In this document: in pieces, positions 20,676 to 21,825 of the stretch
Layout of the letters: the number at the start of each line of letters is the position of its first letter
How positions within the stretch are numbered: the stretch's first letter is position 1
Origin: Escherichia phage vB_Eco_F27
Sequence record: OP870146.1
Reading direction: 5' to 3' (one strand)
DNA length: 64,000 nt
Position numbers and translations under genes: made by a program
The notes under the pieces: model-generated
What the model was told of the DNA's origin: nothing
Databases searched by the model: none
What the model saw: the letters and a program-made list of their open reading frames with translations, nothing else

Positions 20676-20888
20676 CTATTTTAAACTTTTTCGAAATTTG
20701 CGTTTTTCTTGACGAATCTGTCGTTTAGTCGGACGTACAGCAAATTTAACGAAGTCCACTTTGCCGTGTGGAAACTTTTCAGATGCTTCACAGTCCATCA
20801 TTAGTTCCCATCCTTCCAGAATAAGAGCTTTCCATTGTGTAGTTGATGCAAATTCATATGTTGATGGTTTAAACACAGTTGAATACAT
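20676..20888 (-). CDS. small basic hypothetical protein
   Basis: Start at MYSTVFKP; C-terminal VRPTKRQIRQEKRKFRK. Confidence 0.45.
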   Translation of the reverse strand: MYSTVFKPSTYEFASTTQWKALILEGWELMMDCEASEKFPHGKVDFVKFAVRPTKRQIRQEKRKFRKSLK

Positions 20889-20889
20889 A

Positions 20890-21081
20890 TTATCCTCTGA
20901 AATCAGCTTCAAAAACTTTCTCGTCATTAATAAATGCTTTAACTAATGTTTTGTTCACTTCAGCAAGTTGTACCGTAACCCACTCGATTTCTTCGCGATC
21001 ACCTGATAACATCATATCTTTAGTGAACATCTCACCGCTTTTAAACCAACCGATAAAAGTAACTTTAGTTAATTTGCTCAT
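20890..21081 (-). CDS. dmd: Dmd antitoxin (discriminator of mRNA degradation)
   Basis: MSKLTKVTFIGWFKSGEMFTK...AEVNKTLVKAFINDEKVFEADFRG matches recalled T4 Dmd. Confidence 0.85.
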   Translation of the reverse strand: MSKLTKVTFIGWFKSGEMFTKDMMLSGDREEIEWVTVQLAEVNKTLVKAFINDEKVFEADFRG

Positions 21082-21395
21082 ATTTCCTCGCAAAAGGCCC
21101 ATTCAGCGTGATAAACTGTAGCACCTTTAGTATTATTCATTTGAACTACGTCTACCGGAGAAATTACTCGATAGAGACGTGGTTCACCTCCATAAGAGCG
21201 TGCTGCTCGTCCTGCATAAATCTTTGCTAAACCGATATCTTCAGTAAAGAATACACGATCCAAGTTTTTCTTACGTCCAGTTTCAGACAGAACTCCTGTT
21301 TCTTCAGGAGGACAAAGCATGTTTTCGATGTTAGCTGAACTACTTGAACCGTGATAAAAAATCTTAAATTCTGCTTTACAATCGATGGTTTTCAT
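21078..21395 (-). CDS. hypothetical protein with Arr/Tpt1-like ADP-ribosyltransferase motifs
   Basis: FYHGSSS ... RVFFTEDIGLAKIYAGRAA ... GEPRLYRVISP resembles rifampin-ADP-ribosyltransferase (Arr) H-G-S/T, Y-F-T and Y-x-V/I-x-P blocks. Confidence 0.4.
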   Translation of the reverse strand: MKTIDCKAEFKIFYHGSSSSANIENMLCPPEETGVLSETGRKKNLDRVFFTEDIGLAKIYAGRAARSYGGEPRLYRVISPVDVVQMNNTKGATVYHAEWAFCEEI

Positions 21396-21420
21396 TTTGT
21401 TCTCCAGTAGTTGATAGGTC

Positions 21421-21450
21421 TATAATAACACAACTACTGGAGAAGTAAAC
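21421..21450 (-). promoter_or_regulatory. early promoter, spacer complementary to SD
   Basis: GTTTAC ttctccagtagttgtgt TATTATAGACC; spacer CTCCAGTAGTTG is exact complement of 5'UTR CAACTACTGGAG. Confidence 0.65.
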
Positions 21451-21825
21451 TTAAAAACGTAATTTAGATATATCCGCGTTGATTTCGTTTTGGTTTGCGT
21501 CATATGCAATTAAACGAACCGCTTTAGATGGGTCATTCAATGCATAGAAATGATGGAACATTGCTCGAACGATATCACCATTTACGAGTTCTACCTGGAT
21601 AGGAGAACCTTTTTCGAGTTGGAAATGTTCATAAGCTTTGATGGTTCGTAGATAATCAAGTTTTTGATTTCCGGCTCCAACAATTTGTACGATACGTTTG
21701 CCCGTGTTTTCCATACGAGATACAATAGTTTTAGGAGCAAGAATAACGTAGGTTGCCAGCGGAGAAACTACTTCAACAGTTGTGTTTTCGGTGATTGCAG
21801 TAAAAATTGCTTGAGACATATTCAT
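21451..21825 (-). CDS. hypothetical protein
   Basis: 124-aa ORF with own promoter. Confidence 0.5.
   Translation of the reverse strand: MNMSQAIFTAITENTTVEVVSPLATYVILAPKTIVSRMENTGKRIVQIVGAGNQKLDYLRTIKAYEHFQLEKGSPIQVELVNGDIVRAMFHHFYALNDPSKAVRLIAYDANQNEINADISKLRF

Follow-up and report, generated by a model that had tools for sequence, protein, structure and literature searches.

The gene considered here lies at 21078..21395 on the minus strand of a 64,000-nucleotide stretch of Escherichia phage vB_Eco_F27 (OP870146.1; the window). It is an ATG-initiated open reading frame (ORF) of 105 amino acids, a member of PHROG 2110 and the orthologue of RB69ORF040c, and it runs into dmd (discriminator of mRNA degradation). 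Its product has a predicted ADP-ribosyltransferase (ART) fold and is homologous to the rifampin ADP-ribosyltransferase Arr. The family is under purifying selection, is distributed over phages of several bacterial genera, and is not coupled to Dmd in its occurrence or its evolution. We propose, with about even confidence, that this protein, here the ART protein, is an early host-directed mono-ADP-ribosyltransferase of an Arr/KptA-like lineage that acts independently of Dmd.

Conservation of the gene

A preliminary description of this DNA had placed a 105-aa ORF directly upstream of dmd with a 4-nt overlap. Plus-strand positions 21078-21081 indeed read tcat, which is ATGA on the minus strand and is common to the ART stop and the dmd start. 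The sequence blocks picked out there are all present as well: H15-G16-S17, F49-F50-T51-E52-D53...Y60-A61-G62 and Y75-R-V-I-S-P80. Over the 1.3 kb around the gene, DNA identity is 98.8% with Escherichia phage RB69 (Mosigvirus) and 99.1% with phage AV111. RB69 carries the orthologue as 'RB69ORF040c hypothetical protein' (NP_861730), within the minus-strand order uvsX, 40, 41, ORF041c, ORF040c, dmd, 61.4, imm.1, imm, sp.

The protein matches PHROG 2110 at E 7e-60, and more than 140 protein clusters (90% identity clustering) are at least 60% identical to it. The gene is found by tblastn in 609 phage records, with Escherichia (215), Klebsiella (116), Acinetobacter (68), Aeromonas (62), Enterobacter (29), Cronobacter (14), Vibrio (14) and others as hosts. 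Against orthologues of 67-81% nucleotide identity, the ratio of non-synonymous to synonymous substitution rates (dN/dS) is 0.07-0.11, and the family is under strong purifying selection. Because of the PHROG match, the clusters, the 609 records and the dN/dS values, and because the noted blocks fall on conserved positions, the ORF is, judged by its sequence, clearly a real gene and far beyond a chance ORF.

All of the T4-like set share Y14, H15, G16, F49, T51, D53, Y60, G69, G70, G91, F101 and E103. Across 99 diverse or distant members, H15, G16 and Y60 are conserved in 100%, F49 in 98% and T51 in 97%, and position 17 is Ser or Thr in 100%. Family-wide invariants are [YF]-H-G-[ST], P-P, E38, R41 within a basic G-R-K-K-N loop, V-F-x-T, A57, Y60-A, G-G and G91. 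Several GenBank records already label homologues 'putative ADP-ribosyl transferase'.

Fold and predicted active site

An AlphaFold2 model of the ART protein, built with 27 homologues, has six strands and one long helix (mean predicted local distance difference test score 86.9, predicted template modelling score 0.78). When this model is compared with the Protein Data Bank (PDB) by Foldseek, Arr and KptA fill the first 13 places, at a modest E of 7e-3 and template modelling (TM) scores of 0.56-0.58. The best BFVD match from beyond the family is a phage protein of 94 aa that takes its name from Arr (37% identity, E 1e-8, TM 0.74-0.82), and the next are polyvalent and PcfJ-type proteins.

Sequence comparison leads to the same enzyme. 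An exhaustive hidden Markov model (HMM) search with the family profile gave 230 proteins at E<=1e-3, of which 129 reach E<=1e-10. A broad-family profile, A2, was made from an alignment of 59 diverse domains, and in the whole PDB it finds only Arr below E 0.01: Arr-ms (2HW2 and 9IAF) at E 1.1e-4 and Arr-2 (9IBA) at E 2.4e-3. The alignment pairs Arr H19-G-T with H15-G-S, E40 with E38, R43 with R41 and I-Y49-I-T51 with V-F49-F-T51, and it continues through the helix and the following strand. Four distant relatives that match the family profile at E<=1e-24 (P0127, P0131, P0134 and P0147) themselves pass the Pfam Arr-ms model, scoring 26.9-29.7 bits for a cutoff of 25. With these relatives and the A2 matches in the PDB, homology to Arr has transitive support from sequence, in addition to that from the fold. 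Pairwise profile alignment with hhalign is weak, yielding sensible alignments of the close-family profile A1 with Arr-2 (probability 41%, E 2.9e-4) and of A2 with E. coli KptA (probability 3.7%, E 0.011); both target sequences were entered by hand, and the N-terminal 90 residues of Arr-2 agree with the PDB alignment.

The preliminary description had suggested an Arr/Tpt1-like fold, a claim that a lack of structural likeness to ARTs was to overturn, and had offered a small molecule, an RNA end or a host protein as what the enzyme may modify. The likeness is present, both in the fold matches of the model and in the Arr profile matches. From the model and these profile comparisons we assign the ART fold to the protein with high confidence, and there is good reason to predict that it is catalytically competent.

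The split beta-sheet, NAD+-binding fold characteristic of the ART superfamily is seen in the model. Motif 1 on strand 1, generally H/R-G-[ST], is H15-G16-S17, aligned to H19-G-T of Arr. Motif 2 on strand 2, where Y/H/S-x-[ST] is expected, reads F49-F50-T51, with the Phe aligned to Y49 of Arr and to the His of KptA 'VHLS'. Position 49 is Phe in 97 of the 99 members and Tyr in two; the aromatic ring is kept and the hydroxyl or imidazole is lost. Motif 3, expected on a late strand as E/D/Q or, in the H-H-h clade, as a hydrophobic residue, would be E103, which no member of the T4-like set lacks (A-F-x-E103). The NAD+ site is predicted to combine H15-G16-S17 (strand 1), F49-x-T51 (strand 2) and Y60 (helix); E103 is on the last strand, and the basic loop comprises G40-R41-K42-K43-N44.

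The fold call and the link to dmd are already in print as a prediction, for what is a long-annotated hypothetical ORF of RB69. Iyer, Burroughs, Anantharaman and Aravind (2022; Viruses 14:1977, PMC9503650) count 'p0068-like' ARTs among the most frequent viral ARTs, and in section 3.7.1 a p0068-family ART toxin and a Dmd antitoxin form a predicted phage type II toxin-antitoxin system. As described there, an ART stands in the 'toxin' position beside dmd in T4-like phages of Escherichia, Shigella and Salmonella; this fits the present locus, and it fits the ART gene and no other gene adjoining dmd. The family studied here is most likely the p0068-like family, an identification made by matching description and not by accession. 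The same survey places p0068-like proteins in an H-Y-[EDQ] clade, whereas our comparisons tie the family to Arr and to an H-F-hydrophobic/E pattern.

Proposed function

We propose a model where the ART protein is a minimal (about 95-105 aa) NAD+-dependent enzyme from the lineage of Arr and the NAD+ lobe of KptA/Tpt1. Its gene would head an early unit, ART-dmd-tifA, and the protein would be made in the first minutes of infection. NAD+ would bind in the pocket of H15-G16-S17, F49-x-T51 and Y60, and the conserved basic G-R41-K-K-N loop may contact NAD+ or the substrate at a part that is acidic or bears phosphate. The catalytic acid of the T4-like subclade may be E103, on the last strand. ADP-ribose would then be moved to a conserved host target, with a macromolecule (protein or nucleic acid) likelier than a small molecule; we hold a conserved host macromolecule as the target class with moderate confidence. 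The role served may be host takeover or counter-defence, apart from Dmd.

In favour of this model, the gene is grouped with dmd and tifA, which are both proven anti-defence genes, behind an early-type promoter-like site. The domain also recurs as an internal or C-terminal module of very large proteins (511, 870, 1046, 1606, 1955, 2892, 3559, 3735 and 3924 aa). These are polyvalent proteins of phages or plasmids, and they also hold ART-PolyVal, GNAT, Toprim, PcfJ, DUF7178 or phage minor-tail domains. Polyvalent proteins have been proposed to be injected with the DNA of phages or conjugative elements and to subdue the host (Iyer et al. 2017), and use of the same module there supports a host-directed effector role for the ART protein.

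Conservation points in the same direction. Over 600 sequenced phages, with Escherichia, Klebsiella, Acinetobacter, Aeromonas and Vibrio as hosts, have the gene, at 60-100% identity and a dN/dS near 0.1. Conservation of this degree across hosts suggests that the host target is itself conserved and probably important, and its identity would add a new mechanism of host takeover or counter-defence. T4-like phages are the textbook case of viral ADP-ribosylation, through Alt, ModA and ModB; the ART protein would be a fourth such enzyme and a much smaller one. At 94-105 aa, against about 140 aa for Arr, the family may provide the smallest working ART scaffold. Being large and extremely conserved besides, it is a worthwhile experimental lead.

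Several observations weigh against this proposal. Searched alone, the protein has no match in Pfam (even at E<=1), NCBIfam, PADLOC or the PDB sequences, and the close-family profile A1 has none among the PDB sequences. In motif 2, Phe replaces the Tyr of Arr and the His of KptA. Just 12 of the 99 broad-family members have Glu at position 103 and 66 have I, V or L, and a catalytic role for E103 is therefore a guess. Our literature search on RB69ORF040c and its homologues found no experimental work on the activity, expression or target of any member. As for independence from Dmd, Dmd is the very next gene in all 11 of the IMG/VR loci that bear it, where some functional link is possible, and weak Dmd relatives could escape tblastn or the 4-sequence HMM used to find them.

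Comparison with Arr, KptA and other ADP-ribosyltransferases

The alternatives are taken here roughly in the order in which they survive. The first is that the ART protein, like Arr, modifies a small molecule, ADP-ribosylating a hydroxyl of a host or competitor inhibitor, or of an immune signalling nucleotide, and inactivating it. Arr is the only solved family reached by sequence and also a top structural match. Moreover, the broad family is mostly hydrophobic at the third catalytic position, and this H-x-hydrophobic pattern is of the kind named for the H-H-h clade by Iyer et al. (2022), who tie that clade to small-molecule modification and soluble ADP-ribose derivatives. We nonetheless consider a small-molecule enzyme unlikely, as a Glu stands invariably at the presumed canonical catalytic position in the T4-like subclade, no candidate ligand is known, and the ART protein departs from Arr in several respects.

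Against the Arr family (PF12120; PDB 2HW2, 9IAF, 9IBA), the ART protein falls below the Pfam model altogether and does not reach the Arr gathering score. Arr chains are 140-151 aa long, and the ART protein, at 105 aa, is about 35-45 residues shorter. The profile alignment covers only Arr residues 13-82, and the ART protein ends about 20 residues later, at residue 105, with no counterpart of the C-terminal third of Arr. In Arr this C-terminal region contributes to the rifampin-binding cleft, and H19, Y49 and D84 have been reported as important residues. Of that set, H19 is kept as H15, Y49 is replaced by Phe (97 of the 99 members), and D84 has no conserved equivalent, its region aligning near the variable N87/N88, so that H19-Y49-D84 is not preserved as a whole. 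The basic GRKKN loop is 2 residues longer than the loop of Arr, and the T4-like proteins, unlike Arr, end in an invariant A-F-x-E. Finally, Arr is found in resistance cassettes, whereas the ART gene belongs to lytic phages.

An enzyme of RNA or DNA ends, as in KptA/Tpt1, would act on RNAs cleaved by the defence RNases of the host, ADP-ribosylating their terminal 2'- or 5'-phosphates or taking these off, and would thereby cooperate with Dmd and TifA. KptA does share the leading structural matches with Arr, but the architecture is different: the ART protein is a single 105-aa domain without the N-terminal RNA-binding lobe of the two-lobed KptA/Tpt1. In Tpt1 that lobe carries most of the catalytic tetrad. 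Even for the NAD+-binding C-lobe the sequence likeness to KptA is marginal (the hhalign comparison above, probability 3.7% and E 0.011), and the link to dmd and tifA is confined to a minority of phages. We regard this alternative as improbable.

Lacking the Arr C-terminal region and the KptA N-lobe, with Y49 changed to Phe and D84 not conserved, the ART protein is by its sequence outside the Arr and KptA families proper. It is tempting to speculate that it represents a new functional class of minimal ART (~100 aa, H-F-E/hydrophobic, with a GRKKN loop) with which phages and polyvalent effectors ADP-ribosylate nucleic-acid ends or some other phosphate-bearing, universally conserved host molecule, although we think this no more probable than a KptA-like activity. 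If it were true, for example through capping or marking of RNA ends left by defence RNases, the ART protein would form a third, enzymatic arm beside Dmd and TifA of an operon directed against RNase toxins.

Other ARTs of mobile elements are more distant. AcrIF11, an anti-CRISPR mono-ART of phages and plasmids, has no detectable sequence relationship to the ART protein. It targets a Cas protein of type I-F systems, whereas the ART family is far more conserved across hosts, which again points to a conserved target. Alt, ModA and ModB resemble the ART protein in being ARTs of T4-like phages, early or injected, that reprogram the host. They are much larger, do not appear among the structural matches listed, and are assigned to the R-S-E clade by Iyer et al. 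(2022, PMC9503650); the ART protein is an H-type minimal ART.

Relationship to Dmd

Under the published toxin-antitoxin prediction (PMC9503650, section 3.7.1), the ART would be a toxin, bound and neutralised by Dmd as RnlA and LsoA are. Besides the proposal itself, the 4-nt overlap in a toxin-antitoxin-like gene order and the direct adjacency in 11 of the 11 Dmd-bearing IMG/VR loci speak for such a pair, as does the coupling of Dmd with a different, Mod-like ART in some Klebsiella phages, described in the same survey.

The phyletic patterns of the two proteins are nonetheless largely disjoint. Nearly all of the 798 Dmd records are from phages of Escherichia, Shigella, Enterobacteria, Yersinia or Salmonella, with 571 in a T4-like band below 60% identity. 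Klebsiella (116), Acinetobacter (68) and Aeromonas (62), all hosts of ART-bearing phages, are absent from the ten commonest hosts of Dmd records. In KP15, Acinetobacter phage 133 (Acj133) and Aeromonas phage 25, whose loci were examined for phages of Klebsiella, Acinetobacter and Aeromonas, the ART gene is elsewhere in the genome, the genes downstream of it are not Dmd, and no Dmd was detected. In Yersinia phage TG1 an 86%-identical ART occupies the site after gene 41, sp comes next, and the locus contains no dmd. T4 shows the converse, with 41 -> dmd -> 61.4 and no ART; the position of dmd after gene 41 is therefore ancestral, with the ART inserted ahead of it.

Varied neighbours and unlinked rates of change are also evident. 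Dmd lies within 4 kb of the ART in 11 of 66 dereplicated IMG/VR viral-contig loci, and the ORFs that come next after the ART, present in 75 of all the fetched loci, belong to 32 unrelated clusters. Dmds that are only 56% identical stand beside ARTs that are 100% identical, and the divergence of the two proteins is uncorrelated (Spearman rho 0.13, p 0.5, 28 pairs). A toxin and its antitoxin are expected to occur together and adjacent across genomes and to co-vary, and the ART and Dmd do neither. Rather, Dmd looks like an arms-race gene that evolves fast and the ART like an enzyme that evolves slowly. In addition, 4-nt overlaps are frequent among neighbouring genes at the loci examined, and a strictly lytic phage has no obvious need to shield its host from its own effector.

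Because of the separate distributions, the varied neighbours and the lack of co-variation, we consider it unlikely that the ART and Dmd form an obligate toxin-antitoxin pair. Mosigvirus and Dhakavirus may have a looser functional link between the two. We judge neutralisation of the ART by Dmd to be decidedly improbable and the published reading probably wrong, so experiments would be better aimed at a host target than at Dmd neutralisation. On our proposal of a host-directed enzyme, the adjacency to dmd would reflect insertion of the ART gene at the head of an ancestral 41 -> dmd -> tifA early unit, with no toxin-antitoxin partnership. Least probable of all is that the protein is an NADase or other NAD+-processing enzyme, or a non-catalytic binder of NAD+ or ADP-ribose, since its closest relatives by structure and sequence are transferases and NAD+ depletion would seem counter-productive for a phage that needs NAD+-dependent functions.

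Expression signals

An early-type promoter-like site lies directly upstream of the ART gene at 21422..21449 on the minus strand (G-TTTACT, 16 nt, TATTAT, with TG before the -10; 9/12 in a consensus scan), and GTTTAC-N16-18-TAnnAT is found at the matching position in the ART loci of Dhakavirus and Tegunavirus. The terminator scan called no terminator-like site between the ART gene and dmd. Co-transcription of the two genes, as the preliminary description had it, is consistent with the 4-nt overlap, this upstream promoter-like site and the absence of an intervening terminator call. The T4 dmd-tifA pair is driven by an early promoter (PMC9391042). A terminator-like site inside the ART ORF (21310-21293) was rejected as chance, with 1 site found and 1.3 expected in shuffles.

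The same region holds a perfect 14-bp stem-loop (21400..21444, minus strand), with arms at 21444-21431 and 21413-21400, a free energy of -21.9 kcal/mol and a z-score of -4.7; none of 200 shuffles was as stable. Its 3' arm holds the Shine-Dalgarno GGAG of the ART gene (21405-21402) and its loop the -10 element. The hairpin is identical in two IMG/VR Mosigvirus loci and has one mismatch in RB69. The 5' arm is found only in Mosigvirus, which has an extra gene upstream. The early-type promoter-like site spans the 5' arm and loop. Transcripts begun at this site, the ART's own promoter, would therefore be without the 5' arm and open to translation, and those reading through from ORF041c would have the ribosome-binding site sequestered. 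This layout of a hairpin with an internal promoter is like arrangements described for some T4 genes.

A second early-type promoter-like site (GTTTACA-17-TATGAT, 21883-21855, minus strand; 10/12 in the consensus scan) precedes ORF041c. A GC-rich hairpin can be read from the sequence after gene 41, where the terminator scan made no call.

Neighbouring genes

The dmd gene (20890..21081, minus strand) encodes an antitoxin-like inhibitor of RnlA/LsoA and is identified by Pfam PF17587 (E 5e-21), PHROG 2102 and the RB69 annotation. Its Shine-Dalgarno, GAGG, is inside the 3' end of the ART gene, ahead of the overlapping ATG. Directly after dmd comes a homologue of gene 61.4 (20676..20888, minus strand; Pfam DUF7279, E 4.7e-20; RB69 gp61.4). 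Gene 61.4 has been renamed tifA, and RB69 TifA has been shown to inhibit ToxN (PMC9391042). Two anti-RNase-toxin factors thus share a unit headed by the ART gene, and imm.1, imm and sp come after them.

In Dhakavirus-type phages the ART is followed by two divergent dmd paralogues (~56% identical) in tandem (Escherichia phage fDHCT2, locus L002, 2819-3217; also L018-L023). Among related phages with identical ARTs, one or the other dmd type comes first, a pattern suggestive of Dmd diversifying rapidly or being swapped.

Between gene 41 and the ART gene lies ORF041c (21451..21825, minus strand; 124 aa), a member of PHROG 10668, where its function is unassigned. Considered as a candidate partner of the ART, it is a near-orphan, with only 2 matching protein clusters in 5.8 billion sequences, and a domain search gave no matches. 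ORF041c is absent from the matching site in Dhakavirus, Tegunavirus and T4.

Occurrence of the domain in other genomes

A protein of 252-306 aa (phrog_7439 / phrog_7204) is encoded directly upstream of the ART in 14 loci (L003, 1593-2468; L005, 1681-2439; and 12 more). These loci come from Slopekvirus, Aeromonas and RB43-type phages, and the protein is a possible functional partner of the ART.

The domain is carried inside giant polyvalent proteins by P0137 (3735 aa), P0142 (3924 aa), P0132, P0178 and others. Some of these have a second, unrelated ART (ART-PolyVal) in one chain with it, and P0142 starts with a phage minor-tail domain. The stand-alone distant relatives P0121 and P0125 are on contigs of <1 kb, where the context is uninformative.

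A scan of bacterial genomes gave only 5 loci with a relative of the ART. Two are on contigs as long as a phage genome, 178 kb (L012) and 167 kb (L013), and may be phage sequence within the assemblies, and two more (L011 and L015) are on contigs of 1-3 kb. The fifth (L014, 4902-5348) is in the 993-kb chromosome of a Candidatus Kaiserbacteria metagenome-assembled genome, from the candidate phyla radiation. There, a 148-aa relative with 47% identity adjoins an ORF that, by eye, may resemble a transposase or integrase.

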